This document shows, piece after piece, positions 10,678 through 28,687 of a stretch of DNA of 64,000 bases. The notes beneath the pieces were generated by a model that was given only the letters and a program-made list of their open reading frames with translations, did not search any database and was not told the DNA's origin. The DNA is from Verrucomicrobiota bacterium (lineage in GTDB: Bacteria > Verrucomicrobiota > Kiritimatiellia > JAAZAB01). A program made the translations under genes and the position numbers. The stretch covers positions 6,591 to 70,590 of the forward strand of contig JAHIJO010000005.1 in NCBI GenBank assembly GCA_018898455.1. The letters are read 5' to 3'. Position 1 is the stretch's first letter; each line of letters opens with the position of its first letter.

Positions 10678-10729
10678 GGGGAACCGCCAGGATCAGGAAT
10701 AGCATCCCTGCCGTCCGACTCGATGGAGA

Positions 10730-10993
10730 CTACCAGATCAACAGGACAATAAAAATGACGGAAAGCAGCAGCGTGATCAAGCCGATGATTTTATGCCAGG
10801 CCAGCAATTGCGAGTCAATATCATGGGTCCGATTCAATTGTTTCTCCAAAGATTCCGTTGAAATCCACCTCTTGAATATGCTGTTGGCCCGAATGAGCAT
10901 GTTCGGCCAGATCAACAGGAATGCCGTCATGATCAAACATAAGACGGCGAACCAGAGCACAAGCAGCTTATAAGGCATCTCTACTGCAATCAT
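10730..10993 (-). CDS. Small two-TM membrane protein, hypothetical
   Basis: 87 aa with two hydrophobic helices. Sits between the ExeA-like and GspF genes in the same orientation. No family recognised. Confidence 0.4.
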   Translation of the reverse strand: MIAVEMPYKLLVLWFAVLCLIMTAFLLIWPNMLIRANSIFKRWISTESLEKQLNRTHDIDSQLLAWHKIIGLITLLLSVIFIVLLIW

Positions 10994-11062
10994 CGTGAAA
11001 TCCCCCTTCCCTATGTTGTTTCCGATTTCTCTGCCACGACAGCGCCTTGGGCGCCAAAAGCT

Positions 11063-11881
11063 TCAAACAACTCCGAATTTTTCAGCGGCCTCCAGTACCA
11101 GATTCGTATCAATCCGCCCTGATTTTTGAGCATAGCCCAAGGCCAGGCTGACATCGCACAGGGTGTTGATGCGCCGGGGAATGCCGCCCGAATTCCGGTG
11201 AATGAGATTCAACGCCTCTTCCTGGAACAGCGGATCGGCTCTTCCGGCGACAGCGAGCCGGGATTGAATATACCTGGCCGTATCGGCGCTGTCAAAATGA
11301 TGCAAGGTGCAGGTGATGGGGATGCGCTGGGCAAACTGCTTCAAACCCGCCACGCGCTCGGCCAATTCCAGGTGCCCCAGGAAAAGCAAAGTCAGCAAAA
11401 ATTCATCATGGCTTTGAACATTCAGCAACAGACGCAACATTTCAAGCACCGCTTCATTATCAAGCATGTGGGCCTCGTCAATGATGAGCACCGTGTGCTT
11501 GCCGTCCCGGCGATTTTCCTGCAACGCCTTTTCGATGATCTCCAGCATGGCGTCCGCCACAAGATTAGAACGGTCCGCTGACAACGGGGTCTCCGTCATG
11601 GCCCGCGCTATGCTCCGCAGCAGATCAAGGGGGGCCATTCCCGGCTGAGCTATACATGATTTCGAGACATTGGATTTGCCAAGTTGCTGGAGCAGGACGC
11701 GGGACAACAGCGTTTTGCCGCAGCCATAGGCGCCGGTCAGCAGTGCGGCGCCCATGTTTTCAGTGACGGCATACGTCAACTTCATCAGCGCTTCATCGTG
11801 CTGAACCGAGTGGTAAAAAAACTTAGGGTCCGGCGTGTTGTGAAACGGACGGTTATTCAATTTCCAATATTCTTCGTACAT
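11063..11881 (-). CDS. ExeA/GspA/MshM-family AAA ATPase
   Basis: N-terminus ..NRPFHNTPDPKFFYHSVQHDEALMKLTYAV.. followed by Walker A LLTGAYGCGKT and Walker B VLIIDEAHML. Matches ExeA/MshM architecture. Confidence 0.8.
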   Translation of the reverse strand: MYEEYWKLNNRPFHNTPDPKFFYHSVQHDEALMKLTYAVTENMGAALLTGAYGCGKTLLSRVLLQQLGKSNVSKSCIAQPGMAPLDLLRSIARAMTETPLSADRSNLVADAMLEIIEKALQENRRDGKHTVLIIDEAHMLDNEAVLEMLRLLLNVQSHDEFLLTLLFLGHLELAERVAGLKQFAQRIPITCTLHHFDSADTARYIQSRLAVAGRADPLFQEEALNLIHRNSGGIPRRINTLCDVSLALGYAQKSGRIDTNLVLEAAEKFGVV

Positions 11882-11897
11882 GGCATCCTCGGGCAGG

Positions 11898-13811
11898 TTA
11901 CCGGTTTTTTTTCGCCAGCCAGCTTGTCATCTGCTTCCGGTAATCATCAAGATCCAAGCTGAGGCTTTCCGCCTTGACCGCCTCCATGGCCGGTTCGGCT
12001 TCCCCGGCCTCCGGTTGTTCTTTCGGAAGGGACCCCGGCGGCAGGGAAATTTCCGCGACATTTTCCAGGGCGGCAGTGCGCAGCACTTCTTCGAGGGTCG
12101 TGATGCCCCGCTCAACCTTCTCGATGCCGTCGTCCAGCATGCTGACCATGCCGTCCTTGCGCGCCTGCGCCCGCAAGGCGGCGGTTGTTTGTCCGGCGGC
12201 AATTATATCGGCCAGATCCAAAGTCACGGGCATCAATTCGAAAACGGCAATGCGCCCCACGTAGCCGGTATCGCGGCACTTGGAACATCCTTTCCCCCTC
12301 CACATCTTGCCGGGTAGCGACAAACCGGAGGCCGTCAGCCGCTGGCGCAGGCCGTCGGGAACGGCAAAAGGTTCCCGGCATTCCTCACAGATCCGCCGCA
12401 CCAGGCGCTGGGCCATCGCGCCCACCAGCGAGGAGGATACCAGGAACGCCTCGATGTTCATATTGATGAGCCGGGTAACTGCGCCGGGCGCGTCATTGGT
12501 ATGAATTGTCGAAAACACCAGGTGCCCCGTCAGGGCTGCGCGCACCGACAATTGCGCGGTTTCCGGATCCCGCACTTCGCCCACCATGATGACATCGGGG
12601 TCCTGTCTCAGGATGCTGCGGAGCGCGGACGCGAAGGTCAATCCCGCTTTTTCATTCACCTGGATTTGAGTAACCAGGTCCATGCGGCGTTCCACCGGGT
12701 CCTCGATGGTGATGATGTTGCGTTCCGGGGATTTTGCCTTGGACAGCATGGCATAGAGCGTGGTGGACTTGCCGCTGCCGGTCGGTCCGGTGACCACAAC
12801 CATACCATAGGGACGTCGAATCATCCGTTCGACCTGGGGTAGAAGTCTGTCGGAAATGCCCATGCTTTCCAGGGGAATCGCCATGGCCCGCGTGTCGAAA
12901 AGGCGGATCGCCATGTTCTCGCCGTTGGTGGTGGGCATGCTGGAAACACGGGCCTCCACGGTGCGCTTGTCTATGGTGATCTGGAAATGACCGTCCTGCG
13001 GAATGCGGCTTTCCGCGATGTCCATGCTGCTGATGACCTTGATGCGGGAAATGATAAAGGGATGGAGATATTTCGGCGGCGGCGGAATATCATAGAGGAC
13101 GCCGTCAATACGGAAACGGACCTTTAATTGTCCCTCGCCAGGATCGATGTGAATATCGCTGGCCCGGTCGCGCACGGCCTGGGCCACGATCATATCCACC
13201 AGGCGGCTGACCGGCGATTTACTGCTCTGCAGGATGCTTTCCTGAGATTTCACCGCCATCGTTCCCTGTAAGGAATCCTCACCCATTTGATCCAGCAATT
13301 CCTTGAATTCCTCGTGCCCGGAATACACCCGGTTGATCATTTCATGAATATCCTTCCGGGCAGCCAGGCACGGTTCAATCGTGAACTTGCCCAGTGCCGT
13401 CGCCAGCCGATCGAGAACGGTGATGTCGCTGGGATCGGCCAACGCAACCGTGAGTGAGTCGCCGATGGCAAACAAGGGGAATACTTCCAGTTCACGCGCC
13501 AGCTTCTCGTCAATCAGGGAAACCACGGCTTGATTATAAATGTAGGTTTCGAGATCGACGAAAGGCACGCCGAAAATGCCGGCCAGTTCCTCGTAAGCCG
13601 TCTGCTTGGACAATAGATCCAGATTGACAAGAACCTCGACCAGAAGTTCGCGGGTTTCCCTGCTGACCGCCATGGCCTTTTTCAGGGTCTCACTCGTCAA
13701 AAGCCCCTTGGCCATGAGGCGCTTGGCCAAGTCCTCGTTCGTCTGCGCCAACATCTGCTGGCTGAGATCCTGATTCATATCAATCCTCGCTGACACATCC
13801 CGCCCGTTCAA
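11898..13811 (-). CDS. gspE: Type II secretion / type IV pilus assembly ATPase GspE/PilB family with N-terminal GSPII_E_N domain
   Basis: Walker A VVVTGPTGSGKSTT, Asp/His boxes, C-terminal CxxC..CxxC zinc motif (GCSKCRDTGY..). N-terminal T2SSE_N-like domain. Has an Ala/Glu-rich C-terminal extension. Confidence 0.9.
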   Translation of the reverse strand: MNGRDVSARIDMNQDLSQQMLAQTNEDLAKRLMAKGLLTSETLKKAMAVSRETRELLVEVLVNLDLLSKQTAYEELAGIFGVPFVDLETYIYNQAVVSLIDEKLARELEVFPLFAIGDSLTVALADPSDITVLDRLATALGKFTIEPCLAARKDIHEMINRVYSGHEEFKELLDQMGEDSLQGTMAVKSQESILQSSKSPVSRLVDMIVAQAVRDRASDIHIDPGEGQLKVRFRIDGVLYDIPPPPKYLHPFIISRIKVISSMDIAESRIPQDGHFQITIDKRTVEARVSSMPTTNGENMAIRLFDTRAMAIPLESMGISDRLLPQVERMIRRPYGMVVVTGPTGSGKSTTLYAMLSKAKSPERNIITIEDPVERRMDLVTQIQVNEKAGLTFASALRSILRQDPDVIMVGEVRDPETAQLSVRAALTGHLVFSTIHTNDAPGAVTRLINMNIEAFLVSSSLVGAMAQRLVRRICEECREPFAVPDGLRQRLTASGLSLPGKMWRGKGCSKCRDTGYVGRIAVFELMPVTLDLADIIAAGQTTAALRAQARKDGMVSMLDDGIEKVERGITTLEEVLRTAALENVAEISLPPGSLPKEQPEAGEAEPAMEAVKAESLSLDLDDYRKQMTSWLAKKNR

Positions 13812-14191
13812 CCGGCGCTTTCGGCAAGAAGCTTGGCGATGGTTTCCAGCATCTCCTGGGGTTTAAAAGGCTTGGTCATGTAAGCATCGCCGCCCACGCT
13901 CATCCCGGTTTCCCGATCGCTCTGCTGGGACCGGGCCGTCAGCATGACGATGGGAATATTCCGATGTTTTTCATCAAATTTCAACAACCGGGCCACCTTG
14001 TAGCCATCCATCTTGGGCAACATGATATCGAGAATTATCAGGTCCGGATTCCGGTTCCGGGCCAAATCCAGCCCGGCGACACCATCCTCCGCCTCAATGA
14101 CTTCATATCCATTGGCTTCCAGGCGCATGCGAAGCGCCATGCGAAATTCCGGCTCGTCTTCGATTAGAAGTATTTTTTTTGCGGGTGCCAT
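13808..14191 (-). CDS. Single-domain response regulator (CheY-like receiver)
   Basis: KKILLIEDEPEF..DLIILDIMLPKMDGY..MLTA..K motifs of REC domains. ATG 14191 with GGGGAG RBS. Confidence 0.8.
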   Translation of the reverse strand: MAPAKKILLIEDEPEFRMALRMRLEANGYEVIEAEDGVAGLDLARNRNPDLIILDIMLPKMDGYKVARLLKFDEKHRNIPIVMLTARSQQSDRETGMSVGGDAYMTKPFKPQEMLETIAKLLAESAG

Positions 14192-14231
14192 ATTATTTTT
14201 CTCCCCGGTTTTGAATTCAGGGTAATCTTTA

Positions 14232-15767
14232 TCAGCGGCCTTTTTCCTCGATGGGTTCCAAATAGGTTTTCGGTTCAAGGTTCAGCAGAATTCGGATCTT
14301 ATCCAGCAGGTCGTTGGGCGTAAACGGCTTGGCCAGAACTTCATCCGCCCCATCCCGTACCACTTCGGTCAGCGAATGGACATCTCCTGATATGATCAAA
14401 ACCTTGCTGTTATGTTGGCGCGATTGCTGCCGCAAGGAAAGCAACACCTGTTCCCCGCCCACTTCCGCCAGATGCATATCGAGAATGATAAGATTCGGCT
14501 TGAATTCTCCAGCGATGATCAGCGAATCGAGTCCGCTCAACGTTGACTTGACCTCCAGCTTCAGGTCGGAATACCGAAGCACTTTTTCAATCATCCGGAC
14601 AACAAGTTCCTCGTCGTCAACAATGAGGATCCGGGAGGGCAGTTCCTTATCGTACACCGGGAGGGTGAATGAAAAGCAACTCCCCTTGCCAATCGTGCTG
14701 TCAACCGAAATACAGCCGCCATTGAGTTCCACCAGGCTCTTGGCAATTTTCAATCCAAGACCGGTACCCTTGGTGCCCGGACCGTCCTTGCGATCGATCT
14801 GGACGAAGGCCTCAAATATCTTTTCCAATGAATCCCGGGGAATTCCGGGTCCCGTATCTTCAACATCAATGCGCAGGAAGCGGCCTTCCTCTTTGGTTCG
14901 AATGCGAAGGGTTCCCTTCTCCGGCGTAAATTTATGGGCGTTCCCGATCAGGTTCGTCAGAATATTATGGACGCTTGTCACGTCGCAATGCGCCATTGGC
15001 AGATTATCAGGAACATCCAGCACCAGCGTCTGTTTTTTGGTTTGGCAGACGGGGGTAAAATCATTGCGAAACTGCATCAGCAAGGACGTCAAATCCGCTT
15101 TGGTTCTGTGCAATTCCGCCTTACCGGCTTCAATGCGGGCCAAGTCCAGTATCCGGCTGATCAGGTCGGTGAGCTTGTCGCAATTGCGAAGAGCCGCATC
15201 GAGGCATTTGCACTGTTTTTCATTCAGCGGACCTACGGTCTCGTCCCGGACAAGCGACACAAATTCCCGGATGATCGCCAACGGGGTCCGGATCTCATGC
15301 GAAACTTCAGCTACAAATTGGGATTTGGTCTCGTTTAATTCGCGCAAACGTTTCAAGGCCTCCTGGCTGTTCTTCTTCGCGCTATGGCGCTCAATGGCAT
15401 AGCGCAGGGCATGAACCAGCGCGCCAATATCCCCCTGCCCCTTGATCAAGTAATCCTGCGCGCCTTCCTTGACCAGTTGGGAGGCCAGGGCTTCATCCCC
15501 GACACACGTTAAAACGATAATCGGGATTTCGGGGAATCGCCCGTATACTTTCCTGAATGTTTCCAGTCCACGGCTGTCCGGTAGAATCAGGTCCAGCATG
15601 ACCACCTCAGCCTGGCTTTCGGCCAGCCATGAGAGCGCCGCATCGAGTCGGCCAACCGACGCAATATTGAAATTGGTATCTTTGGTATGAAGCAGTTGTT
15701 CCTTGATCAATACCACTTCATCCGGATTATCCTCAACCAGCAGAATATTGATGCGTTTGGATTTCAT
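14232..15767 (-). CDS. Hybrid sensor histidine kinase with N- and C-terminal receiver domains (REC-HisKA-HATPase-REC)
   Basis: N-terminal REC (INILLVEDNPDE..MLDLILPD), HisKA H-box (VSHEIRTPL), N/G1/G2 boxes (NLIGNAHKFT, DTGPGIP, GTGLGL), C-terminal REC (RILIVDDEELV..DMHL). Confidence 0.85.
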   Translation of the reverse strand: MKSKRINILLVEDNPDEVVLIKEQLLHTKDTNFNIASVGRLDAALSWLAESQAEVVMLDLILPDSRGLETFRKVYGRFPEIPIIVLTCVGDEALASQLVKEGAQDYLIKGQGDIGALVHALRYAIERHSAKKNSQEALKRLRELNETKSQFVAEVSHEIRTPLAIIREFVSLVRDETVGPLNEKQCKCLDAALRNCDKLTDLISRILDLARIEAGKAELHRTKADLTSLLMQFRNDFTPVCQTKKQTLVLDVPDNLPMAHCDVTSVHNILTNLIGNAHKFTPEKGTLRIRTKEEGRFLRIDVEDTGPGIPRDSLEKIFEAFVQIDRKDGPGTKGTGLGLKIAKSLVELNGGCISVDSTIGKGSCFSFTLPVYDKELPSRILIVDDEELVVRMIEKVLRYSDLKLEVKSTLSGLDSLIIAGEFKPNLIILDMHLAEVGGEQVLLSLRQQSRQHNSKVLIISGDVHSLTEVVRDGADEVLAKPFTPNDLLDKIRILLNLEPKTYLEPIEEKGR

Positions 15768-15968
15768 ATCTTGATGTACCTTCAAACCAGTAAACTGATC
15801 CGGACGATATCAACCGCCTTTACCCCGATCGAGACAACACGCTGGGGACTCAACCATACCGCAACCCAACGTTAGAAATGCCTTAAAATAACCCCATTAC
15901 ACAAAGGGTGTCAAGGCGAATCACGACGGTCGTAATGAGTCCCTATCCCATGGATTGCTGATAGCCGC

Positions 15969-16547: not shown

Positions 16548-16586
16548 AATTAAATTAGCCCCCCGCAGCGGGAGACTAATTTAATT
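16548..16586 (+). terminator. AT-rich perfect 11-bp inverted repeat AATTAAATTAG ... CTAATTTAATT with 17-nt GC-rich loop; possible terminator/regulatory hairpin
   Basis: Arms 16548-16558 and 16576-16586 are exact reverse complements. Follows the stop at 16511 and precedes the operator/promoter of the next operon. Confidence 0.3.
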
Positions 16587-16588
16587 TA

Positions 16589-16626
16589 AACTTTGTGTTG
16601 CAAAGTTCTTTGCGGAGTGTTATTCT
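16589..16626 (+). promoter_or_regulatory. Promoter TTGCAA-17-TATTCT overlapped by a dyad-symmetric operator AACTTTG-N5-CAAAGTTCTTTGCG (site 1)
   Basis: -35 at 16598-16603, -10 at 16621-16626. Three CAAAG/CTTTG half-sites in alternating orientation (16591-95, 16601-05, 16609-13). The same 26-mer architecture recurs at 17679-17711. Confidence 0.45.
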
Positions 16627-16648
16627 TCGTTCAGAAACAAGGAGAACT

Positions 16649-17287
16649 ATGCTCGCACATCATGTCCATGATGCTTTAACCCAGGTCAAACGGCTCCAGG
16701 CCCTCATCCTTGAGAAGCGTTTATTCCGCGGTTACTCGGGGATTGCCCGCATGGCCGGCGGTCTCGTTGCGCTTGGCGGAATGTTCATCATGGCATCCCC
16801 GCTCTTCCCTTCCGTGCTCTCCGCGCATCTTCTGGGTTGGACGGCGGTGCTGATCATTGCCCTGGCCATTAATTATGGCACGCTGCTGTTCTGGTTTTCG
16901 ACCATGCCCGCCGCCCGCCGTTCGCTCCGTGAGCTGGTGCCCGCTTGCGATGCCGTTCCGGCCCTGGCGGTCGGCGCCGGACTCAGTCTGGCGCTGATAA
17001 TGCATGGCGAATACGATCTATTGTTTGGAACTTGGATGTGCCTGTATGGTTTGGTGCACATGCCTTACCGCAACAGCCTGCCCTTTGCCAACTACCTGGT
17101 CGGCATCTTTTATCTGGCGTGCGGCGCGATCATGCTGGTCTGGCCGGGAGTAGCGTTCACCAATCCGTACCCGATGGGCCTCGTTTTCGGCGCCGGCGAG
17201 CTGGGCGGAGGTTTTGTGTTGTGCCGGTTGAATCAAGAAACTGTTCTGGAACAGGAGGAAGAAACATCCCATGAAAACAACGACTGA
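16649..17287 (+). CDS. Integral membrane protein, hypothetical (5-6 TM)
   Basis: ATG 16649 with AAGGAG RBS. Several hydrophobic helices. The 3' end overlaps the start of the downstream ArsR-like gene, implying translational coupling. Confidence 0.6.
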   Translation: MLAHHVHDALTQVKRLQALILEKRLFRGYSGIARMAGGLVALGGMFIMASPLFPSVLSAHLLGWTAVLIIALAINYGTLLFWFSTMPAARRSLRELVPACDAVPALAVGAGLSLALIMHGEYDLLFGTWMCLYGLVHMPYRNSLPFANYLVGIFYLACGAIMLVWPGVAFTNPYPMGLVFGAGELGGGFVLCRLNQETVLEQEEETSHENND

Positions 17288-17648
17288 TAGTCCGTTCGAT
17301 GCGCTGGAGAAAATATTCCATGAACCTAACCGCCTGGCCATCATGTCCGCCTTATGCGCCGCGGATGGCGGAGTCCCCTTCACCGACCTGAAGACATCCT
17401 GTCGGCTGACCGACGGCAATCTGAGCCGCCATCTTAAAGTGCTTGAGGAAACTGGCGTGATCCGCGTGGAAAAGTCATTCGTCAAACTCCGTCCACGGAC
17501 GACAATCCACCTGACCAAAACCGGCTTCCAGCGGTTTAACGAATACCTGGCCGCGCTGACTGAAGTGTTGGAACAAGCCCGCCAGGCCACAGGCACCGAG
17601 CGAAGCAAATCGCGTCTGCCAGCTTTTGGGAAACTAGCGCCGGCGTAA
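17271..17648 (+). CDS. ArsR/SmtB-type winged-helix transcriptional regulator
   Basis: HEPNRLAIMSALCA....FTDLKTSCRLTDGNLSRHLKVLEETGVIRVEK matches the ArsR-family HTH pattern (xRLxIxxxL ... LSxHLKxLxxAGLV). Confidence 0.7.
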   Translation: MKTTTDSPFDALEKIFHEPNRLAIMSALCAADGGVPFTDLKTSCRLTDGNLSRHLKVLEETGVIRVEKSFVKLRPRTTIHLTKTGFQRFNEYLAALTEVLEQARQATGTERSKSRLPAFGKLAPA

Positions 17649-17678
17649 TTGAGTTAACACCGTATTTTTTTATTGCTC

Positions 17679-17711
17679 AACTTTGCCAAACAAAGTTCTT
17701 TGCGTTAGATT
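17679..17711 (+). promoter_or_regulatory. Promoter TTGCCA-17-TAGATT overlapped by the same operator AACTTTG-N5-CAAAGTTCTTTGCG (site 2); predicted leaderless start
   Basis: -35 at 17683-88, -10 at 17706-11. The predicted transcription start coincides with ATG 17719, which has no RBS. The operator copy is identical in spacing to site 1. Confidence 0.45.
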
Positions 17712-17718
17712 GAATCAC

Positions 17719-18921
17719 ATGAAAACAGTTCAAACCTTACAAGTGCTATCCGCAACACTCCTGGCGATCGGACTGGTGGTCACCCTACCCCTGCTTGGAA
17801 TCATGGCGACCGGCCTGCCGATCGGACACTATCTCGAATTTCCCCCTCACACCCATTACGTGGAACACGCCGGTTTTTCATGGTCCGTATTCGCCGGACT
17901 GGCCGCGTTTATTCTAATTGTCATCCTGCCTTTCATTATCCGGATCCTGTGCGCCAACCGGATGACGAAGACGAAAATGAAGCCGCTTATGGAGTCAACC
18001 GTCGCCCCGGCAGAGCCCCCTTTGCTGGGAAGCTACGGAGGGCCATGGTGGGGCGGATACAATTGCAATCAAAACGCCCGCCGTTTTCCAGTTTGGGGCT
18101 GGATTGGCATCGCCGGGGGAATCGGGGCCTGGATTCTCGCCTGGTCCCGTTTTGATTGGTTCGCACCCTGGCAGGCCTTCACGTTCAGTCCGTTGTGGTT
18201 CAGCTATATCGTCATCGTCAACGCCCTGACTCACCGGCGCACCGGCCAATGCATGCTGACCCAGAGACCCGTTTTCCTGCTGATGCTCTTTGTGTTCAGC
18301 GCCGCCTTCTGGTGGTTATTCGAATACCTGAACCGATTCGTCCAGAACTGGTACTACCTCGGGATCGGTTCCCTGACCCCCTTGGAATATTTTCTGTTTG
18401 CCACCCTCCCGTTTTCCACCGTGCTCCCGGCGGTAATGGGCACCTTCCAGCTCCTGGCCACCTACCCGCGACTTTCCAACGGACTGACCGGAATTTTTGT
18501 CATGCCCCACATCCAATCGCGCTTCGGTGCTCTCATTGTTCTTACATTGTCGGCGGGCGGATTGGCAGGTATTGGCTTGTGGCCGGACTACCTGTTTCCA
18601 TTACTCTGGCTGGCGCCGCTGGGAATACTGGCATCCCTCCAAACACTGACCGGACGGACGTCACTGTTTGCCGACCTGGTCCGCGGCGACTGGCGGCGGA
18701 TCGTCCTGCTGGCGCTGGCCGCGCTGATTTGCGGCTTCTTCTGGGAGATGTGGAATTTTTACAGCCTCGCCAAGTGGGTCTATGCCGTGCCATTCGTTGA
18801 CCGCTTCCACATTTTTGAAATGCCGGTACTCGGCTATGCCGGCTATCTACTCTTCGGCCTGGAATGCGCGCTGATTGCGGATTTACTGTGCGGTCGGCGA
18901 CAGATCGAGGAAAAACCTTGA
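17719..18921 (+). CDS. Large polytopic membrane protein, hypothetical (about 10 TM, Trp/aromatic-rich)
   Basis: First ATG at 17719; the 17683 start is TTG inside the operator. Highly hydrophobic. No family recognised. Stop overlaps the downstream start (TTGA). Confidence 0.6.
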   Translation: MKTVQTLQVLSATLLAIGLVVTLPLLGIMATGLPIGHYLEFPPHTHYVEHAGFSWSVFAGLAAFILIVILPFIIRILCANRMTKTKMKPLMESTVAPAEPPLLGSYGGPWWGGYNCNQNARRFPVWGWIGIAGGIGAWILAWSRFDWFAPWQAFTFSPLWFSYIVIVNALTHRRTGQCMLTQRPVFLLMLFVFSAAFWWLFEYLNRFVQNWYYLGIGSLTPLEYFLFATLPFSTVLPAVMGTFQLLATYPRLSNGLTGIFVMPHIQSRFGALIVLTLSAGGLAGIGLWPDYLFPLLWLAPLGILASLQTLTGRTSLFADLVRGDWRRIVLLALAALICGFFWEMWNFYSLAKWVYAVPFVDRFHIFEMPVLGYAGYLLFGLECALIADLLCGRRQIEEKP

Positions 18922-19481
18922 AAACATTTTACCACAGGTTACTGCAATTATGGCAGACAACACCGGAATGGAAACGTTCGGCGCTGGTCACGGCATTTCT
19001 TCTTCTGGCGTTGATACCGTGGACGGACTGCATGCCGGCGTTCTGGCGGACGGCATTCGTAATGCCGACCGCCTGGATCGCATCCTGGTTTATGTCGGCC
19101 AACTGTGTTCCCACACCACAAGGGTGCCTGCTTATCACGCCGATTGCGCCTGTTCATGTAACCCTCGCCTGCTGTGCGGCCAGATTTTTTGTCCTCCTGG
19201 CTTCCATGCTCGTCGGGCAGATTGTGGTTTCACGACGCCCTAAAATCCCCGGATTGGCGATTGCCTTGTTGATCGCCTACATGGTTGCGATTGCGGCCAA
19301 CTCGGCACGAGTTGTTTTCGCGTGGTTTGCCGGTCGGTGGGCCGAGCGCATCTTACCGTCCCATTTCGCCGCGGCAGTGCATATGGGCGCAGGCATAATG
19401 GTGTTTCTCGTGTTCCTGGTTGTACCGTGGGTCTTGTTCATGAACATAATTGATGACAAACGAAAGGAGAACTGGCGATGA
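18918..19481 (+). CDS. Minimal exosortase/archaeosortase-family protein candidate (~187 aa, 5-6 TM)
   Basis: TTG 18918 with GAGGAAAAAC RBS (alternative ATG 18864 overlaps the upstream gene). Motif LACCAAR (19164-19184) resembles the exosortase active-site EACSGLR (Cys...Arg). Later ANSARVV matches the conserved N-x-x-R motif. All sit in predicted TM context. Confidence 0.55.
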   Translation: MKTFYHRLLQLWQTTPEWKRSALVTAFLLLALIPWTDCMPAFWRTAFVMPTAWIASWFMSANCVPTPQGCLLITPIAPVHVTLACCAARFFVLLASMLVGQIVVSRRPKIPGLAIALLIAYMVAIAANSARVVFAWFAGRWAERILPSHFAAAVHMGAGIMVFLVFLVVPWVLFMNIIDDKRKENWR

Positions 19482-22411
19482 ACGCAACAGCAGATCGTTC
19501 ACAACTATTCGGTGACATATTGCGGAAACCAGCATTCATTCTGTGGACGATGATCCTGCCGCAGCTTCTTCTGCTGGCAATCAATATCAGCTCATGGAAC
19601 CTGGTTTCGGGCGAGATGTCCGCAATTCAGAAGGGTAATGCTTTCATGATTGGCGCTTTCGAAGTTGCCCTCCTGGGCGCTGGCGCCATTGCGTTTACTG
19701 GTTTGCAGATCCTGAAAAAAGGGGTGGGACGGATTCTTTCTGTGGGCATAATCCTTGCACATATCGGTTATCTCTGGACATTCACCTCTGCCATGCGTCA
19801 ACTGGTGCCCACCAGTGTTGCGGATTGGATTCTGCCGGGCGGTGAACTCCTTTATTATCAATATGCACTCATCATGCCGGCCCTGTTTTACGCAGGGTTC
19901 CGCCTGGTATCATTCGAGATACCGCTACGGCAAATCGCCGACTTTGGTGTCTCGCTGGGTGTGCTCCTCCTTCTGCCGATTGCCTGGTTTGTGGTCTTTT
20001 CACTTGCGCGCTTCTTGCCGTGGGGTTTCGAACCGCCAGTGATTATCGGGATTGTGTTCTTCGTGGCTTCGACAGTCATCGCCCTGCTGGCATTCCTGCG
20101 AGTGCTCCTGATTGTCTATGCCTGGGTGAACCGGGTAGTACACGGACGCCTTGTGCTCCTGGTGGTAACCGGCATTGCCGCGCCAATCGGCGGACTGTTG
20201 TTGAACATCGCGTATCCATTTCCTTATGATTTCCAGGACCCGTGGGTTTATATCCTGACAATACTTAACGGCCTGATCCTGTTGATTCCCACCCCGAAGA
20301 CCACGTCCCTGCGAGTAGGCATCTGGTACTTGCGCGCGCTGGTGTTTCCATTCTCGCTCTATTTCTTCGTGGTGTTCCTCCCGTTCCTGCCATTGTCACT
20401 CCTGGCCATGCTTGCCTGCGGCGCCGGTTGCCTGATCCTCGCCCCGACGCTCCTCTTCGTGATACACACGCGATGCTTACTAGATGAAGGCCGCGCCCTG
20501 ATCCCGCAGAAAGGCTGGACGGTTGTGTTGGCGTTGCTGGTCGCCGGCGTTTTGACCATTCCGGCCGGTTACACCGTCCGCGCACTCTATGACCGGCAGG
20601 CATTGATGTCGGCCGTGGATGCCGTGTACAGCCGCGATGCAGACGTCACCCGCGTCAGCTTCAATCCGCACTCCGCCTTGCGCGCCGTGGAACGTCTGCG
20701 TAACCAGAAGAACGGTATCCAGGTCCCGTTCATCTCGGACTACTACAATTGGCTGGTTTTCAATGGTTTGGTCCTGCCGGACTACAAGATGGATGCAATC
20801 GAACTGGTCCTCTCCGGAGCCAAACCTGCAAAACCCAAAATTAACAGTCATTTCAGCTTTGCCGAAATTTTTGCTACCCGAGGCAGGAGCCGTCCAGCAT
20901 GGCGCTCGACACCGGCGCCGCCACGGCGTGTTGAATTGACTACGGTGAATACAAACACTGAACGGGCCGGCGACGTGCTTAAGACCCGGGTCCAACTGCA
21001 AATGCGGAATGGAACCGACAATGCGGCCGAGTTCGTTACGGACATCACGGTGCCGCCCGGAGTTATGGTCACGGGCTATTGGTTGAACATGGAAACCAAC
21101 CGCGTGCCCGGCCGCATCTTCGAGAAAAAAACGGCGATGTGGGTCTATCACATGATCCGCGACACGACACGCCGGGATCCCGGTTTGCTGGTGTATCAGG
21201 ACGAACACCGTCTCAAGCTTAGCGTGTTTCCATTCCGGCAAAACGAGGAACGGATCACCGAAATCGAGTTCACATTCCCTGCAATCATGGATCCGGAGAT
21301 CGTGATCGGGACCCGGCCATTGCGCCTGAACAGCGATGCCCAACTGCGCGCCGAACCGATCCGATTCAAGCATGCCGGCAGTGACGCCCTGGCCGTTCCG
21401 CGCGCGGTGTTGAATACATTTCCCACGGTTCGCCGAAAACCCTACTTGCATTTCATCCTGGACTGTTCGGCAACCGCCGAAAAAGAAGCGCACCAGTTTG
21501 CCGAACGCATCCGGCGTGAAGCGGCCCGTTTCCCGGAAGCCGGTGGCTGTCTTATCTCCGCGGCTAACTATGAAGTTACCGACCTGACCGATCAGTTTAT
21601 CCCCTTGGCCGATGCGGCGGAACTCGTGACCGCATCGCGTGGAAAGATGCTCCCGTTCCGGGGCGCACTTTGTCCGGAATATGCGATCAAACGCGGACTG
21701 CCGGATTTCAGATTCGGATTGGCATTCGACAAAAGCGGCGAATTAATGGTCCCAATCTTTGTTGTGATCAAGGCCGACGCCACCACGCCGGTGATGCCGA
21801 CCGACCTTGCCGTTTTTGCCGATGCGGTTCCGGATGTGCCGGCATGGTACATCACGCGCTTGGACGGCCGCCTCGACGCCTGCGCATTTGATGGCAGAAC
21901 AAACACCATTGTCGAGCGACCGTCACTGCCTGAACCGGCAGTTGTGTTTCGGCACGGCGACGCCATCGTGACACATTGCGCCAAGACGGACGCGATTATT
22001 TCGTTCCGTCCAACTGCCGCGCCGATAATGTATTTCGATCCTGCTACTCGCCAGTTCATTGAGATCACGAATATTATCAAGTCGGCACACGACAGCGGAT
22101 ATGGCGCGGCCATATCACTCTGGTTGGACTGGCGCGATACGGTCATTCGGCCATCAACCCTAAATGCACGGCTTCCGGCAATTGTCAAGGCCAGCCGGGA
22201 GTCGAATGTCATCGTACCGTTGACTTCCTACATCGTGGTCGAGAATTCGGCGCAGTGGAAAATGCTTGTGATCAAGGAAAAACAGTCGTTGGCGGCGGAC
22301 CATGCGCTCGCGTTCGACGAATTCAAGGAGTCGCCGGAGCCCGCGTCGTGGCTCTTGCTGCCAATCGCCTGCGCCTTGCTGTGGTGGCGAAGGACAAGAC
22401 AATACGGATAA
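19478..22411 (+). CDS. 977-aa protein: N-terminal ~460-aa multipass membrane domain, large soluble middle region (VIT-like?), C-terminal PEP-CTERM-type sorting signal
   Basis: ATG overlaps the upstream stop (ATGA), AAAGGAGAA RBS. At least 10 hydrophobic helices in the first 460 aa. C-terminus ..SPEPASWLLLPIACALLWWRRTRQYG (22331-22408) is PEP motif, then TM helix, then Arg cluster. This is the PEP-CTERM signature recognised by exosortases. Confidence 0.7.
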   Translation: MNATADRSQLFGDILRKPAFILWTMILPQLLLLAINISSWNLVSGEMSAIQKGNAFMIGAFEVALLGAGAIAFTGLQILKKGVGRILSVGIILAHIGYLWTFTSAMRQLVPTSVADWILPGGELLYYQYALIMPALFYAGFRLVSFEIPLRQIADFGVSLGVLLLLPIAWFVVFSLARFLPWGFEPPVIIGIVFFVASTVIALLAFLRVLLIVYAWVNRVVHGRLVLLVVTGIAAPIGGLLLNIAYPFPYDFQDPWVYILTILNGLILLIPTPKTTSLRVGIWYLRALVFPFSLYFFVVFLPFLPLSLLAMLACGAGCLILAPTLLFVIHTRCLLDEGRALIPQKGWTVVLALLVAGVLTIPAGYTVRALYDRQALMSAVDAVYSRDADVTRVSFNPHSALRAVERLRNQKNGIQVPFISDYYNWLVFNGLVLPDYKMDAIELVLSGAKPAKPKINSHFSFAEIFATRGRSRPAWRSTPAPPRRVELTTVNTNTERAGDVLKTRVQLQMRNGTDNAAEFVTDITVPPGVMVTGYWLNMETNRVPGRIFEKKTAMWVYHMIRDTTRRDPGLLVYQDEHRLKLSVFPFRQNEERITEIEFTFPAIMDPEIVIGTRPLRLNSDAQLRAEPIRFKHAGSDALAVPRAVLNTFPTVRRKPYLHFILDCSATAEKEAHQFAERIRREAARFPEAGGCLISAANYEVTDLTDQFIPLADAAELVTASRGKMLPFRGALCPEYAIKRGLPDFRFGLAFDKSGELMVPIFVVIKADATTPVMPTDLAVFADAVPDVPAWYITRLDGRLDACAFDGRTNTIVERPSLPEPAVVFRHGDAIVTHCAKTDAIISFRPTAAPIMYFDPATRQFIEITNIIKSAHDSGYGAAISLWLDWRDTVIRPSTLNARLPAIVKASRESNVIVPLTSYIVVENSAQWKMLVIKEKQSLAADHALAFDEFKESPEPASWLLLPIACALLWWRRTRQYG

Positions 22412-22523: not shown

Positions 22524-23315
22524 ATGCCAACTGAAACACTATTTAAGAACTGCATTGAAAAAGCAACACTCGGCGCCATTCTGATATTAATCCTGTTGTG
22601 TTGTTCGGCTTGTGAAAGGCTTTTCGATGCCTTTAATAGTCCGGCAGAACAGGCTTACTTGATGGGATTACGCGCCCAGAAAGGTGAAGCCAGGGACACT
22701 GACCCCCTGGAATGTTTCAATCGAGCAATTAGCTTGGATCCGCATCGATCCCGATATTACAGCGCACGTGCCGAATTGTATTTTTGGAAAAGGCAATTTG
22801 CAGAAGCGCTCCGGGATCTGAATGAAGCTGTCTCGCTCTCGCCTAATTGGTACTATCTTTATTTCGAGCGCGGCAACTGTAAATGTCAATTGAATGACTT
22901 CATATCAGCACTGGCAGATTTTGATACAGCGATCAAGGCACAGCCTGATAACGCTCAGTACTACAGTGGCGTCGCTCTGGCAAATCTTGGAATGAATAGT
23001 CCCGATAAAGCGCTGGAGGCAATCGAAAAAACAATAGCTTTAGACCCTATGTGCCTGCGCTGGCACTTCTATAGAGGTGTCATTTTAAGCCGCATGGGTA
23101 GACACAAAGACGCAGTATCGGAATTCGCTAAAACGGAAGCCTTCACGATTATGCTGAAAGACAACAAGCAAAAGCAGGTTTTTTTCGACGGAGAAATTGA
23201 ATATACCAAGGCGCGCGCTCTGTCACCGCAACAACTGCTGAGTACCTGGCCTTATGCTCCTTCCGAAGAGCGCGCTGAGCAGTACTTTCTCAAGCGAGGC
23301 TCAAACGAGGAATAA
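22524..23315 (+). CDS. Tetratricopeptide-repeat protein, probable lipoprotein
   Basis: ATG 22524 with AAGGGAA RBS. N-terminal hydrophobic segment ending ..LLCCSAC. At least 4 TPR-like units (A..LDP...Y..RA.....A..D..A). Confidence 0.7.
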   Translation: MPTETLFKNCIEKATLGAILILILLCCSACERLFDAFNSPAEQAYLMGLRAQKGEARDTDPLECFNRAISLDPHRSRYYSARAELYFWKRQFAEALRDLNEAVSLSPNWYYLYFERGNCKCQLNDFISALADFDTAIKAQPDNAQYYSGVALANLGMNSPDKALEAIEKTIALDPMCLRWHFYRGVILSRMGRHKDAVSEFAKTEAFTIMLKDNKQKQVFFDGEIEYTKARALSPQQLLSTWPYAPSEERAEQYFLKRGSNEE

Positions 23316-23449: not shown

Positions 23450-25060
23450 ATGAATGCACCATCACATCATCCGTATTCACGGGCGGGAATCTGTGTTTGG
23501 ATCAATGGGCTGATCGTTCTATTCCTCGCCGTCTATTTCCTGATCCTGCCGGGGTTCATTTTGGTACACGACCTGATGGACCCCAACCTCCGCCAGCCGG
23601 GTGGTATCCCCCGGATGGCCTGGCGGGTGCATGCCAGCTTGACCCCGCACTACGAACACTGGGCGCGGGCCCGCGTCGCCTCCGGCAGAGCCGGACATCT
23701 CCAGCTAAATGACGTGCCCAGCACGGAATGGCCGATGTTCGGATCGGTTTTCTATCTTGCCGCCACAGAAAATCTTCAACGCGCGTGGGACAAAGGTGAG
23801 CATGGTTCCCGTATTGCTCCGAAAGTGTATGCCCGGGCCGCAATTGAAGCGGCGGCGGAACTCATCCTGGACCCCATCCACCACACGTGGGTTCGCACGC
23901 ATTGGGGACCGAACTACCTGCACCATGAAAATGTGTTCTTCCGGGCCATGATTATCCAAGGCCTCACCTGCCGCCAAAACCTGATCGGTGACGGCAAATA
24001 CCTGGACATCCTACGCGACCAGGTGGAAACACTTGCGGACGATCTCGACCGTTCGCCATACGGACTGCTCCACGATTATCCCGGAGAATGCTACCCAGTC
24101 GATGTATTGGCGGCGATCACCATGATTCGCCGGGCGGATCCTGTGCTGGGCACGGATCATTCGGCATTTGCCGGCCGGGCCAGGCGCGGATTCCAGGGAG
24201 CACGGCTTGATGCGCGCGGATTGCCACCCTACGTGGCCGAGCCTACTACCGGCGGACATGACGGTATCTCACGGGGTATCGGCAATTCATACATTTGTAT
24301 CTACGCCCCGGAACTTTATCCGGATTTGGCCCGAGTCTGGTATGACGCTTATCAACGCTACTTCTGGCAGGAGCGAATAGGCGCGGCCGGGTTTCGCGAA
24401 TATCCCAACGATCTTCCCGGCTACGAATTATTTTTCGATGTGGATTCCGGCCCTGTCATTTTCGGATTCAGCCCGGCGGGGAACGCTTATGGCTTGGCGG
24501 CGGCGCGGGTCAACGGCCGTTTCGATCAGGCGTGGCCGCTGGCCTCACAGGTACTGGCGGCTTGCTGGCATCTGCCCAACGGCAGTCTGCTGGGACCGCG
24601 GATGTTGTCCAATGCCGCGCACGCCCCCTACCTGGGTGAAGCCAATATGCTTTTCCTGCTGACACAGAACCCGATCCCAGCCCAACCGATCCGCCTTGGC
24701 GGGCACATGCCGCCGCTGGTGTATGTTGGATTCATGTTTTATTTCGGATTGGGGACACTAGTGATTGGCTTGACAACCCGTAAACTTTTCGCCTGGAAAA
24801 ACACAGGTGAAATCGTTCACGTGCCTTTTGCTCGGATTCAACTCAGTCTATGGCTGCTCTTAATGCTTGCCGGGATCATCCTGATGATATGCATCAGCCC
24901 CGGCATCGGCATGTTACCCATTATTACCGCCCAGCTTCTGCCGCGCTTCGGTAAGGTCAAAAGGAATAGCTCACGAAATGGTCGGATGGCTTCCGTTGTA
25001 GCGGCCGTTCGACAGAACGGCAATCCACGGTTCTTCCCGCTAGGAGCGGGACAAACTTAA
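23450..25060 (+). CDS. Hypothetical membrane protein (N-terminal TM, large extracytoplasmic domain, C-terminal TM bundle)
   Basis: Single long ORF with hydrophobic segments at both ends. No family recognised. Confidence 0.55.
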   Translation: MNAPSHHPYSRAGICVWINGLIVLFLAVYFLILPGFILVHDLMDPNLRQPGGIPRMAWRVHASLTPHYEHWARARVASGRAGHLQLNDVPSTEWPMFGSVFYLAATENLQRAWDKGEHGSRIAPKVYARAAIEAAAELILDPIHHTWVRTHWGPNYLHHENVFFRAMIIQGLTCRQNLIGDGKYLDILRDQVETLADDLDRSPYGLLHDYPGECYPVDVLAAITMIRRADPVLGTDHSAFAGRARRGFQGARLDARGLPPYVAEPTTGGHDGISRGIGNSYICIYAPELYPDLARVWYDAYQRYFWQERIGAAGFREYPNDLPGYELFFDVDSGPVIFGFSPAGNAYGLAAARVNGRFDQAWPLASQVLAACWHLPNGSLLGPRMLSNAAHAPYLGEANMLFLLTQNPIPAQPIRLGGHMPPLVYVGFMFYFGLGTLVIGLTTRKLFAWKNTGEIVHVPFARIQLSLWLLLMLAGIILMICISPGIGMLPIITAQLLPRFGKVKRNSSRNGRMASVVAAVRQNGNPRFFPLGAGQT

Positions 25061-25680: not shown

Positions 25681-26646
25681 ATGAAGGCATTGATCACCGG
25701 TATTACCGGACAGGACGGGTCTTATCTGGCGGATTTTCTACTGAGTCGCGGCTACCAGGTCTTCGGCATGGTGCGCCGCTCCAGCACGGAAACCTTCGAG
25801 CGCATCGCACATATCAAGGACCGGCTCAACCTGAAACAGGCCGACCTGCTGGACCAGCTCTCGCTTATTGAGTTGATGGAGGAAGTTCAGCCGGATGAAA
25901 TCTACAACCTGGCGGCCATGTCGTTTGTGCCGACCTCCTGGACCCAGCCGATGCTGACGGGGGAATTTACAGCCATCGGCGTCACCCGCATGCTGGAAGC
26001 CATGCGCCATGTCTGTCCGCAAGCCAAATTTTACCAGGCCTCCAGCAGTGAAATGTTCGGCCAAGTCCGCGAAGTGCCCCAGACCGAACTCACGCCGTTT
26101 CACCCGCGAAGCCCCTATGGCGCCGCCAAGGCTTACGGCCATTACATTACCGTCAACTACCGGGAAAGCTACAACCTGTTCGCATGCTCCGGCATTCTCT
26201 TCAACCATGAAAGCCCGCGGCGCGGCAAGGAATTCGTCACCCGTAAAATCAGCAACGGTGTCGCCCGGATCAAGCGGGGACTTGACCATGAACTCCGCAT
26301 GGGCAATCTTGACGCGAAACGGGATTGGGGATTCGCCGGCGATTATGTCAAGGCCATGTGGATGATGCTTCAGCAGGATCATCCGGATGATTATCTCATC
26401 GCCACCGGCCAAGCTCATTCAGTCCGCGATTTTCTTGAACAGGCATTTTCCCATGTGGGACTGGACTGGAAACAGTATGTCGTCCAGGACCCCCAGTTCA
26501 TTCGGCCGGCGGAAGTCGATCAATTGATGGGGAACAGTTCCAAAGCCCGGCGGGTGCTGGGCTGGACACCGGAAGTTGACTTCCACGGACTGGTCACTAT
26601 GATGGTGGATTCAGATCTGGCCAAACTTCAAACTGTTAAGCCCTGA
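25681..26646 (+). CDS. gmd: GDP-mannose 4,6-dehydratase
   Basis: [29 protein letters not shown].. and the downstream catalytic motifs are near-textbook Gmd. Confidence 0.9.
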
Positions 26647-26648
26647 TC

Positions 26649-27590
26649 ATGCGCGTGCTTGTCACAGGAGCCAGTGGGTTTGTCGGTAAACACCTGATTC
26701 GCGAATTACTCCGGCACGATCACGAACCGCTGGCGTTCGACCTCGTCCCGGCCCGGTCCCTGCCCGTATCCGTTCCCGGTTTTACGGGGGATATTCTGAA
26801 CGCGGAACTCCTGCTGCGGCTGGTGGCCCGTATCCGGCCTGACGCCTGCGTGCATCTGGGCGGCATTTCATTCGTCCCCGAGGGTTGGCATAATCCGGAA
26901 CGCATGTTATCCGTCAATGTGCTGGGCGCCATTCACCTGCTGGAAGCGTTCCGGAAATCCTCGGCCGGCGCGCATATCCTGGTCATCAGTTCCGCCGAGG
27001 TGTATGGATGCCGGCCCCGCTCCCACCCGATTACCGAACAGGAACTGCTGGATCCCGATAATCCTTACGCCGTTTCCAAGGCGGCGGCCGACCAAATGTC
27101 CTTGTTGTATGCATCCTATCACGGCATGCATATCATGACAGCGCGCCCCTGCAACCATATCGGGCCGGGCCAGTCCCCGCAATTCGTGGTGCCCTCCTTC
27201 GCCGAACAACTCCTGGCAATCGCCCGGAAGAAGACGGCGCCTGTTTTAAAAGCCGGCAACCTGGAAAACCTGCGCGATTTCACGGACGTCCGCGATATCG
27301 TCCGGGCCTACCGCCTGCTCATCGAAAGCGGCAAAGCCGGACAGGCCTATAATATTGCGTCCGGACGCGCTGTGCCCATTCAAACCATTCTGGACCAGTT
27401 GGGCGGAATTATTGGCGTGACGCCATCAGTTGAAAGGGATCCCAACCGGTATCGCCCCCTGGAACACCGGCCGCAAATCGCCATCGGCAAAATTGCGGCG
27501 GATATTAATTGGAAACCCGATATCCCGCTGGAAGTCACCTTGCGGGATGTGGTTGCCGAACTCAACCGATCTCCCACCCCTCCGACATGA
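26649..27590 (+). CDS. NAD-dependent epimerase/dehydratase, GDP-4-keto-6-deoxy-D-mannose reductase (Rmd)-like
   Basis: MRVLVTGASGFVGKHL.. SDR Rossmann motif and YxxxK (YAVSKAAAD). Immediately follows gmd with a 2-nt gap. The Rmd versus GDP-fucose synthase assignment is inference from context and N-terminus. Confidence 0.65.
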   Translation: MRVLVTGASGFVGKHLIRELLRHDHEPLAFDLVPARSLPVSVPGFTGDILNAELLLRLVARIRPDACVHLGGISFVPEGWHNPERMLSVNVLGAIHLLEAFRKSSAGAHILVISSAEVYGCRPRSHPITEQELLDPDNPYAVSKAAADQMSLLYASYHGMHIMTARPCNHIGPGQSPQFVVPSFAEQLLAIARKKTAPVLKAGNLENLRDFTDVRDIVRAYRLLIESGKAGQAYNIASGRAVPIQTILDQLGGIIGVTPSVERDPNRYRPLEHRPQIAIGKIAADINWKPDIPLEVTLRDVVAELNRSPTPPT

Positions 27591-28687
27591 GATCCATTTC
27601 ATCGCTGAAAAAAACGCTTTCCATCGCGCTGCGACTGGCGCTGGCCTTCGGAATCATCTTTTACCTCCTGCATAAAATCGACATGCAGGCTCTGACGCTG
27701 ATCCTGCGGGAAAGTCTGAGCCAATGGGAATGGCTCATTGCCGGCATCGTGCTCAGCTATCTAGCCCTGCACGCCGGCATGATCCGGTGGAGCATCATTC
27801 TCGACGCCCAGGGACTGGAAATGTCAGCAAAGCGCTGTTTCAGCGTGTATTTCATCGGGCAATTTTTCAACTCGTTCATGTTCGGTTCCACCGGGGGCGA
27901 CCTGATCCGCGCCTTTTACGCGGCGAAGGAAACCCATCACAAGAAGACTGAAGCCGTGGCTACGGTGTTCATTGACCGGATGATCGGGCTCATCGCCCTC
28001 TATCTGATTGCCGCGATCATGCTGACGGTTCGAGTAAAGTTTTTCCTGAGCCAGTGGGAAACCCATCTGCCGGCGCTGATCATGATCGGCATGATCCTGG
28101 CCACCATGGTCGCCCTGATCGTGGTCTTCAATATCAATCGTTTTGCCAACTGGCCGCTGGTGGACAGAATCAAGCGGCACCCGACGCTCGGACGAACAAT
28201 CAAGCGCGTGTTGATTTCCATCTATCTGTACCGGCGCCGGACAGGCGTCCTGATACGGACCTCGCTTCTGTCGCTTTTAATCCAGGCGCTCACCGTTACG
28301 CAATGCTACTGCATCGGCCGGTGTTTCCAGATCAATATTGGCGTCGTGGATTACCTGACGGTCATTCCCATTATCATATCAATCGCGGCCATCCCGATCA
28401 CTCCCGGCGGACTGGGCATCCGCGAGGGACTCGCCGTCACCCTGCTCGGCGCGATGGGCGTCAACAGCGCTCAGTCTCTGCCGCTGTCCCTGATGATTTT
28501 CTTTATCTCCGTGGCCTGGAGCCTGGTAGGCGGCGTGATCTTCATGGGGTATTCAGCGAGCTCCGGACACACGGTCCACGAGGAAATGGTCGAGCTCGAA
28601 CACGAGACGGAGAGCGAAGACGGGGAGGAAGGGATCCCGAGCGCCCATGAACAAGACAACGTCATCCGAACGTGCCAGGGCCAATAA
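27587..28687 (+). CDS. Lysylphosphatidylglycerol-synthase-TM-like / flippase-like membrane protein (UPF0104 family)
   Basis: ATG overlaps the upstream stop (ATGA). 8 or so TM helices and the PGGLGIREG motif diagnostic of the LPG_synthase_TM family. Acidic C-terminal tail. The 3' end overlaps convergent murC by ~135 nt. Confidence 0.7.
   Translation: MRSISSLKKTLSIALRLALAFGIIFYLLHKIDMQALTLILRESLSQWEWLIAGIVLSYLALHAGMIRWSIILDAQGLEMSAKRCFSVYFIGQFFNSFMFGSTGGDLIRAFYAAKETHHKKTEAVATVFIDRMIGLIALYLIAAIMLTVRVKFFLSQWETHLPALIMIGMILATMVALIVVFNINRFANWPLVDRIKRHPTLGRTIKRVLISIYLYRRRTGVLIRTSLLSLLIQALTVTQCYCIGRCFQINIGVVDYLTVIPIIISIAAIPITPGGLGIREGLAVTLLGAMGVNSAQSLPLSLMIFFISVAWSLVGGVIFMGYSASSGHTVHEEMVELEHETESEDGEEGIPSAHEQDNVIRTCQGQ

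Follow-up and report, generated by a model that had tools for sequence, protein, structure and literature searches.

A locus in a 64-kb stretch of a Verrucomicrobia/Kiritimatiellae metagenome-assembled genome (contig JAHIJO010000005.1; GenBank locus tags in the KKG09_090xx range), hereafter the window, was found to combine two gene sets. One is a sorting pair, consisting of a small exosortase-like protein (B2) and a large MSEP-CTERM protein (B3); the other is a repressor module, consisting of a membrane protein (A1), a winged-helix regulator (A2) and two further membrane proteins (B1 and D2). Each set is conserved separately, and it is likely that the two are expressed here as one regulon. Five open reading frames (ORFs), A1, A2, B1, B2 and B3, were confirmed on one strand from the ORF list and by direct reading; their sizes match the public gene calls on the identical contig, and the overlapping start and stop codons described in the initial annotation are all present. 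That annotation had placed the locus at 16548-22411. The genes in this span are as it described them, but the functional unit extends beyond 22411 and takes in a TPR gene (D1, 22525..23315) and D2 (23450..25060). The features are as follows.

16548..16586, + strand: stem-loop, an inverted repeat between the upstream gene (end 16511) and operator 1
16589..16626, + strand: operator 1 and putative promoter; palindrome at a conserved site, hexamers read from sequence
16649..17287, + strand: A1, 212 amino acids (aa); ATG preceded by an AAGGAG ribosome-binding site
17271..17648, + strand: A2, 125 aa; 17-nucleotide (nt) overlap with A1
17679..17711, + strand: operator 2 and promoter-like site; palindrome, promoter scan
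17719..18921, + strand: B1, 400-aa polytopic membrane protein
18918..19481, + strand: B2, 187 aa; TTG start, TTGA overlap with the B1 stop
19478..22411, + strand: B3, 977 aa; ATG start, ATGA (4-nt) overlap with the B2 stop
22331..22408, + strand: sorting tail of B3 (S952-G977), SPEP-ASWLLLPIACALLWW-RRTRQYG, comprising motif, hydrophobic helix and basic cluster
22525..23315, + strand: D1, 263-aa TPR protein with an N-terminal hydrophobic segment
23450..25060, + strand: D2, 536-aa membrane-anchored protein, beyond the range of the initial annotation

B3 matched the NCBIfam MSEP-CTERM model TIGR04286 at 434 bits (E = 1e-129, cutoff 150). The alignment is full-length, with residues 15-974 of B3 corresponding to model positions 3-915 of 920, and the MSEP-CTERM name is already attached to B3 in GenBank; the initial annotation, which had proposed this family, was right. 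Hydropathy places approximately 11 hydrophobic or transmembrane (TM) segments between residues ~17 and 368. This N-terminal membrane domain has 703 representative relatives, and because nearly all of them are proteins of ~950-1000 aa, the domain is specific to the B3 architecture. A VIT domain follows at residues 488-598 (nt 20939-21271; Pfam VIT, 27.6 bits) and is present in 20/20 relatives. Farther along the chain is a conserved hhhhDxS strand containing D662 and S664, and comparison of the B3 profile with solved structures gave marginal matches to the VIT domain of the inter-alpha-trypsin inhibitor heavy chain and to the vWA domain of the anthrax toxin receptor. An extracytoplasmic location of the VIT domain fits the odd number of TM segments and the basic N-terminus, as read from the sequence.

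The C-terminal tail of B3, KESPEPASWLLLPIACALLWWRRTRQYG, is the only one of its type found by a regular-expression scan of the window. The literal MSEP motif does not occur in it: the window has KESPEP, and relatives carry SPEP, SPAP or TPAP, with SSEP, LSEP or TSEP in a few. Within the motif only P953 and P955 are invariant across the family and the glutamate is often alanine; the hydrophobic-then-basic tail is retained throughout.

B2 passes the exosortase/archaeosortase signature TIGR04178 (28.4-28.7 bits, cutoff 23), which bears out its earlier description as exosortase-like, and it is named an archaeosortase/exosortase family protein in GenBank. XrtK (TIGR04287) is the commonest subfamily hit among B2-type proteins encoded directly upstream of B3 homologues, matching 64 of 65. 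B2 agrees with that subfamily in size (187 aa, for a model length of 163) and in its partner, since it adjoins a TIGR04286 member. Among 65 B2 homologues, which have a mean column identity of 22%, no variation is seen at C85, N128 or R131, and H155 is 98% conserved. The exosortase catalytic triad has been proposed to consist of Cys, Arg and His (Haft preprint 10.1101/2023.06.07.544157). As judged from these sequence features, B2 is a putative minimal XrtK-like exosortase with Cys85, Arg131 and His155 as the catalytic candidates. A search of PDB sequences returned no solved relative of the B2 family. A 205-aa form of B2, starting from an ATG at 18864, was considered and rejected; it is absent from public collections, and GenBank gives the 187-aa TTG form.

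The pairing of enzyme and substrate was followed through a comparison set of 79 species-level genomes with MSEP-CTERM loci. In 64-67 of these genomes the gene immediately preceding B3 encodes a B2 homologue, so that synteny supports the proposal in the initial annotation of an enzyme paired with a single substrate. The hosts belong to Kiritimatiellae, Victivallales/Lentisphaerae, Verrucomicrobia/Opitutae, Omnitrophota, Planctomycetes and a few Spirochaetota, and thus mostly to the PVC (Planctomycetes-Verrucomicrobia-Chlamydiae) group; carriers in culture include Opitutaceae EW11 and strain IMCC26134 (loci L057 and L067). When ten partners, mostly from the PVC group, were scored against the XrtK model, nine fell below its cutoff of 55 at 27-45 bits, and one (from locus L066) passed at 68.9. 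The curated XrtK model misses most partners in the PVC group though the substrate model finds their substrates, which is a gap in current annotation.

The pair can be placed by comparison with known systems. It shares with the MSEP-CTERM/XrtK system (TIGR04286/TIGR04287) a multi-pass N-terminus, a large extracytoplasmic region and a tripartite tail on the substrate, together with an adjacent exosortase of ~165-190 aa and a ratio of one enzyme to one substrate. It differs in the low XrtK scores of B2 and most PVC partners, in having SPEP (SPAP in relatives) and not MSEP as the motif, and in lying within an operon with a winged-helix repressor, B1 and D2. With the XrtN system (TIGR04476/TIGR04477) it has in common a VIT domain in a dedicated substrate, residues 513-602 of B3 aligning to the VIT region of TIGR04477. 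XrtN is, however, ~400 aa in length as compared with 187 aa for B2, and both models scored far below their cutoffs (39 bits versus 250 for TIGR04477, 17.1 versus 200 for TIGR04476); assignment to this type, also suggested in the initial annotation, was rejected on these scores. Classical PEP-CTERM/XrtA (EpsH) systems have the same enzyme superfamily, the same Cys/Arg/His residues and a tail of motif, helix and basic cluster; they serve many substrates per enzyme, belong to polysaccharide-synthesis loci and are regulated by PrsK/PrsR (Haft 2006, PMC1569441). The present locus has one substrate, and generic PEP-CTERM hidden Markov models do not reach their thresholds on it. EpsI, Wzy and PrsK/PrsR are all missing near the locus, where the neighbouring kinase and response regulator are of generic hybrid types. 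These absences, with the single tail of this kind in 64 kb, sustain the earlier statement that this is not a standard exopolysaccharide-type PEP-CTERM locus. Finally, the homologous enzyme of the ArtA/PGF-CTERM system removes a C-terminal helix, and the substrate gains a prenyl-derived lipid anchor (PMC7157517; summarised in 10.1101/2023.06.07.544157). ArtA differs in being archaeal, in acting on many substrates and in its recognition motif, but shows how transfer to an acceptor could work.

The regulatory sites of the locus consist of a 26-nt element that occurs at 16589-16614 and again at 17679-17704, the copies being identical at 21/26 positions. Both contain a perfect 7-5-7 palindrome, AACTTTG-N5-CAAAGTT, followed by CTTTGCG, and at both sites the palindrome overlaps a plausible -35 hexamer. 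Operator 1 is AACTTTGTGTTGCAAAGTT plus CTTTGCG, with -35 TTGCAA at 16598-16603 and -10 TATTCT at 16621-16626; operator 2 is AACTTTGCCAAACAAAGTT plus CTTTGCG, with -35 TTGCCA at 17683-17688 and -10 TAGATT at 17706-17711. They are the sole matches in the window at up to two mismatches, where 0.23 would be expected by chance; two matches were reached in 3 of 100 shuffles. In ten loci, namely the window (60 nt) and nine others, the same palindrome is located 59-64 nt ahead of the A1 ATG; the background, taken from 76 loci that lack the A1/A2 module, is 0.31 motif hits per 10 kb when up to three mismatches are allowed. Because its position is kept in related loci above this background, we conclude from the comparative data that the element is real. 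A second operator is found downstream of A2 and ahead of the next gene in four loci (L087, L088, L009 and the window). The paired palindromes and their conservation across loci agree with the initial annotation, which had described two promoters with a common operator. No third copy exists within the window, and D2 therefore has no operator of its own. With the -10 hexamer of site 2 ending 7 nt short of the B1 ATG, a leaderless B1 mRNA is possible.

Operator 1 is abutted by a stem-loop (16548-16586) whose 19-nt arms, AATTAAATTAGCCCCCCGC and GCGGGAGACTAATTTAATT, are 89% complementary. Its RNA fold has an energy of -20.2 kcal/mol (z = -1.9) and lacks a clean T-run, and no Rfam element was found anywhere in the window. 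The structure is probably a terminator or insulator of the upstream gene, which encodes a 156-aa secreted protein; alternatively, it may be an extra regulatory site.

The proposed repressor at both operators is A2, a member of the Pfam winged-helix family HTH_34 (PF13601; 75.3 bits, cutoff 27) in the ArsR-like superfamily. Its nearest solved structure is PH1061 (entry 1ub9). A1, whose start agrees with homologues and with public gene calls, is a membrane protein of ~5-6 TM segments that matches no Pfam or NCBIfam family and is annotated as a hypothetical protein in GenBank. It is always paired with A2, in nine loci and additionally in L087 and L088, and is proposed to be a membrane sensor or partner of the A2 repressor. 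In Bacillus subtilis, the ArsR-like autorepressor SdpR is encoded in an operon with SdpI, a ~200-aa polytopic membrane protein that controls it. The likeness of A1/A2 to this system is one of functional analogy only: A1 has no sequence relationship to SdpI, the gene order is reversed, and A2 scores 15 bits against the SdpR model (cutoff 100).

The initial annotation had called A2 an ArsR/SmtB-type regulator, and we considered whether A2 could be a metal- or metalloid-sensing repressor of that type, with the locus serving as a metal-stress response. The best NCBIfam hit of A2 is indeed the ArsR/SmtB model NF033788 (E = 9e-10), and Pfam HTH_5 and HTH_20 also match. The NF033788 score of 38.3 bits is nevertheless under the cutoff of 55, the best Pfam family is HTH_34, and direct reading of the A2 sequence revealed no CXC or ELCVCDL-type alpha-3 metal-binding motif. 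The regulon contains no metal transporter or reductase, and the constant pairing with A1 points to a signal derived from the membrane. Metal sensing is thus very improbable and was rejected; the assignment to the winged-helix, ArsR-like superfamily stands, and that to the ArsR/SmtB type does not.

B1 and D2 both belong to very large, highly conserved and unnamed families, with at least 4491 homologues at 50-60% identity for B1 and at least 908 at 50-60% identity for D2. Neither protein matched a Pfam domain, and both are annotated only as hypothetical. In many organisms, including many PVC bacteria, the two constitute a single polypeptide: in the 883-aa fused protein P0295, residues 33-367 correspond to B1 (56% identity) and residues 385-871 to D2 (57%). 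Where the genes are separate, D2 is found directly after B3 (closest relative, L001) or between B1 and B2 (L028 and L053), and B1 is also found by itself, as in Desulfofustis. D2 is a functional partner of B1. D2 has a linalool-dehydratase-like (alpha/alpha)6 barrel, as confirmed by structural superposition of the barrel, flanked by one N-terminal and about three C-terminal TM helices. Its likeness to linalool dehydratase/isomerase (PDB 5i3t) is at the level of the barrel fold, at 12% identity and with no Pfam family. Lis, a membrane-anchored linalool isomerase (PMC4791888), differs in having four N-terminal TM helices, and unlike either of these enzymes D2 is partnered by or fused to B1. No clear fold relative of B1 was found. 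Relative to P0295, B1 carries an insertion of ~29 residues rich in Gly, Trp and Asn (residues ~90-118), which has a predicted local distance difference test (pLDDT) score below 50 in the model.

A1, A2 and B1, with D2 where present, lie beside the sorting pair in 9-15 of the 79 loci, in varying gene orders. The A1/HTH_34/B1-D2 fusion module with two operators also exists in L087 and L088, which have no exosortase or MSEP-CTERM gene; A2 is followed by a TPR gene and two unknowns in L087 and by CreD in L088. By this distribution, A1, A2, B1 and D2 form a separate conserved module, and the putative repressor belongs primarily with B1/D2. A2 was accordingly misdescribed as a dedicated repressor of the sortase pair, and most MSEP-CTERM loci have no A2-type repressor. 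Downstream of the B1-D2 fusion in L087 (11733-14724) are the lipid A genes LpxI and LpxB and a glycosyltransferase gene, which together hint further at an outer-envelope role of the module. In L006 (3250-4869) and L043 (2155-4029), DUF4153 membrane proteins (~195 bits) are encoded between B1 and the XrtK-like gene and represent variable cargo.

This distribution raises the main rival explanation, which is that the exosortase/MSEP-CTERM cassette is a passenger inserted in a B1-D2 operon, sharing its regulation and not its function. In the window the B2-B3-TPR cassette sits between B1 and D2, genes that are fused or adjacent elsewhere, as though it interrupts an ancestral unit. The module also holds other genes in the two module-only loci and in the two loci with DUF4153. 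Moreover, ~64 of the 79 MSEP-CTERM loci have no B1/D2, and B1 can stand alone. Set against this, 12 of the 79 genomes have B1 on the same strand as B3 and no more than 7 kb upstream of it, at B3 identities among these of 36-45%; linkage at such divergence is far above random placement and suggests selection. The gene orders also vary (D2 before B2, after B3, fused or split), and shared descent in one subclade could contribute to the linkage. We regard the passenger explanation as possible but doubtful. Returning to a single regulon of two conserved sets, the location of the B2-B3-TPR cassette between B1 and D2 would bring the sorting pair under A2 control.

Several further observations count against this view of the locus. 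Eleven Omnitrophota/Planctomycetes loci carry a GntR regulator and an ABC transporter instead of the A1-A2-B1-D2 module, and because most MSEP-CTERM loci are without that module, a functional link between it and the sorting pair is not required. In the closest relative, L001, the second operator is absent and B1 directly follows A2 with its own ribosome-binding site; with one operator there, little may be gained from the second promoter. Promoter 1 has 8 of 12 sigma-70 consensus positions as read from the sequence, and the promoter scan flagged site 2 and not site 1. The vWA-like region of B3 is tentative, its evidence being the DxS strand and very weak structure hits. The best subfamily hit of B2, to XrtK, is 30 bits, under the cutoff of 55, and the tail of B3 scored 13.4 bits with the PEP-CTERM model TIGR02595 (cutoff 16) and gave no hit with Pfam PF07589, which itself had a weak hit in 1 of 20 relatives. 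The tail therefore does not qualify as the canonical PEP-CTERM signal that it had been called. Lastly, cleavage and transfer by B2 are extrapolations from family members such as ArtA and XrtA, because no exosortase of the XrtK subfamily is known to have been studied biochemically and no paper on MSEP-CTERM or XrtK was found in the literature library searched.

The tail and enzyme scores bear on a second rival explanation, in which B2 does not process B3 at all; the C-terminal helix would anchor B3 permanently at a second point, and B2 would belong to a B2-B3 complex as a structural or assembly subunit. Rejection of the tail by the generic models is consistent with this explanation, as are the frequent replacement of the motif glutamate by alanine (SPAP, TPAP), the size of B2, which is far smaller than typical exosortases, and the prior membrane anchorage of B3, which gives it no obvious need of release or re-anchoring. 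The Cys, Arg and His residues are, however, invariant or nearly so in 65 divergent B2 homologues, indicating that catalysis has been retained, and the invariant P-x-P directly abuts the helix, as in signals known to be cleaved. We consider it unlikely that B2 lacks a processing role.

The GntR-type loci present a second, different regulator-plus-membrane module on the same sorting pair. In about ten loci (L022, L023, L027, L032, L034, L037, L039, L046, L050 and L051), the GntR regulator gene was observed ~1-4 kb upstream of the XrtK-like gene, together with genes for an ABC ATPase and for a 460-aa membrane protein that matches no Pfam family. In L041 the GntR and ABC genes are downstream of B3 rather than upstream.

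The likely joint regulation of the sorting pair and the repressor module can be expressed as a mechanism. B3 would insert through its ~11 N-terminal TM helices, placing the VIT and vWA-like domains outside the cytoplasmic membrane, and the chain would be re-anchored through its C-terminal SPEP, hydrophobic helix and RRTR tail. B2, acting with Cys85, Arg131 and His155, would cut B3 at the SPEP motif and probably also transfer the new C-terminus to an envelope acceptor, B3 remaining tethered by its N-terminal domain throughout. An A2 dimer would bind the 7-5-7 palindrome over the -35 regions of two promoters, its own and the one before B1, and A1, co-translated with A2, would probably pass an envelope signal to it. 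B1 and D2 would form a two-part membrane enzyme. De-repression would give rise to B1, B2 and B3 from translationally coupled genes, with the TPR protein and D2 probably co-expressed. What underlies this mechanism by observation is family membership, conserved residues, gene linkage, the B1-D2 fusion, the D2 fold and the conserved operators; its enzymatic and regulatory steps are inferred.

An extension of this mechanism would assign a common biochemistry to the two gene sets: B1/D2 might make or modify the acceptor in the membrane, which would be an isoprenoid-type lipid or else a glycan of the envelope, and the XrtK-like enzyme would transfer the C-terminus of B3 to it. We know of no lipid acceptor for any bacterial exosortase, and we judge this extension quite unlikely. 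If it were true, the locus would amount to a bacterial counterpart of archaeosortase-type lipid anchoring, self-contained and under the control of a repressor, and B1 would represent a membrane-enzyme fold not seen before.

Within the unit, D1 is lineage-specific and has no counterpart in L001. The D1 stretch has a G+C content of 0.51, versus ~0.55-0.58 in its flanks, and was probably inserted recently; among NCBIfam models, D1 matches a MamA-like TPR best, though far below cutoff. Directly downstream of D2, at 25681-28687, are genes of envelope glycan or lipid metabolism. They encode a GDP-mannose 4,6-dehydratase, a further epimerase/dehydratase and a flippase-like protein (LPG_synthase_TM) that gives a weak HpnL-like hit; a Mur ligase gene is also located downstream. 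On the minus strand at 30038-34043, a C-5 cytosine DNA methylase gene (32838-34043) lies beside two ORFs of ~400-450 aa without a family hit, and the region may be a restriction-modification or other defence cassette. Upstream, at 9451-15785 on the minus strand, is a type II secretion/type IV pilus-like set comprising T2SSF, an AAA_22 ATPase and T2SSE with an MshEN domain. After this set, which is divergent from the locus, come a stand-alone receiver protein and a hybrid histidine kinase that contains two receiver domains.

The core of the locus is not new, in that NCBIfam already has curated models for the MSEP-CTERM/exosortase system and GenBank already names it; in the literature library searched, no paper on MSEP-CTERM or XrtK and no experimental work on the system were found. 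What is new is the composite locus, its conserved two-operator design, the link between B1 and D2 by fusion, the linalool-dehydratase-like fold of D2 and the under-reach of the XrtK model. The locus is a reasonable entry point for experiments and not a surprise. A candidate repressor and its operator offer a possible switch with which to turn the system on, and a single substrate whose C-terminus is traceable by mass spectrometry could tell whether bacterial exosortases act as transpeptidases, and with which acceptor. B1 and D2 represent widespread unnamed families that now have a conserved regulator, a fusion link and, for D2, a fold assignment, and they merit study independent of the exosortase.

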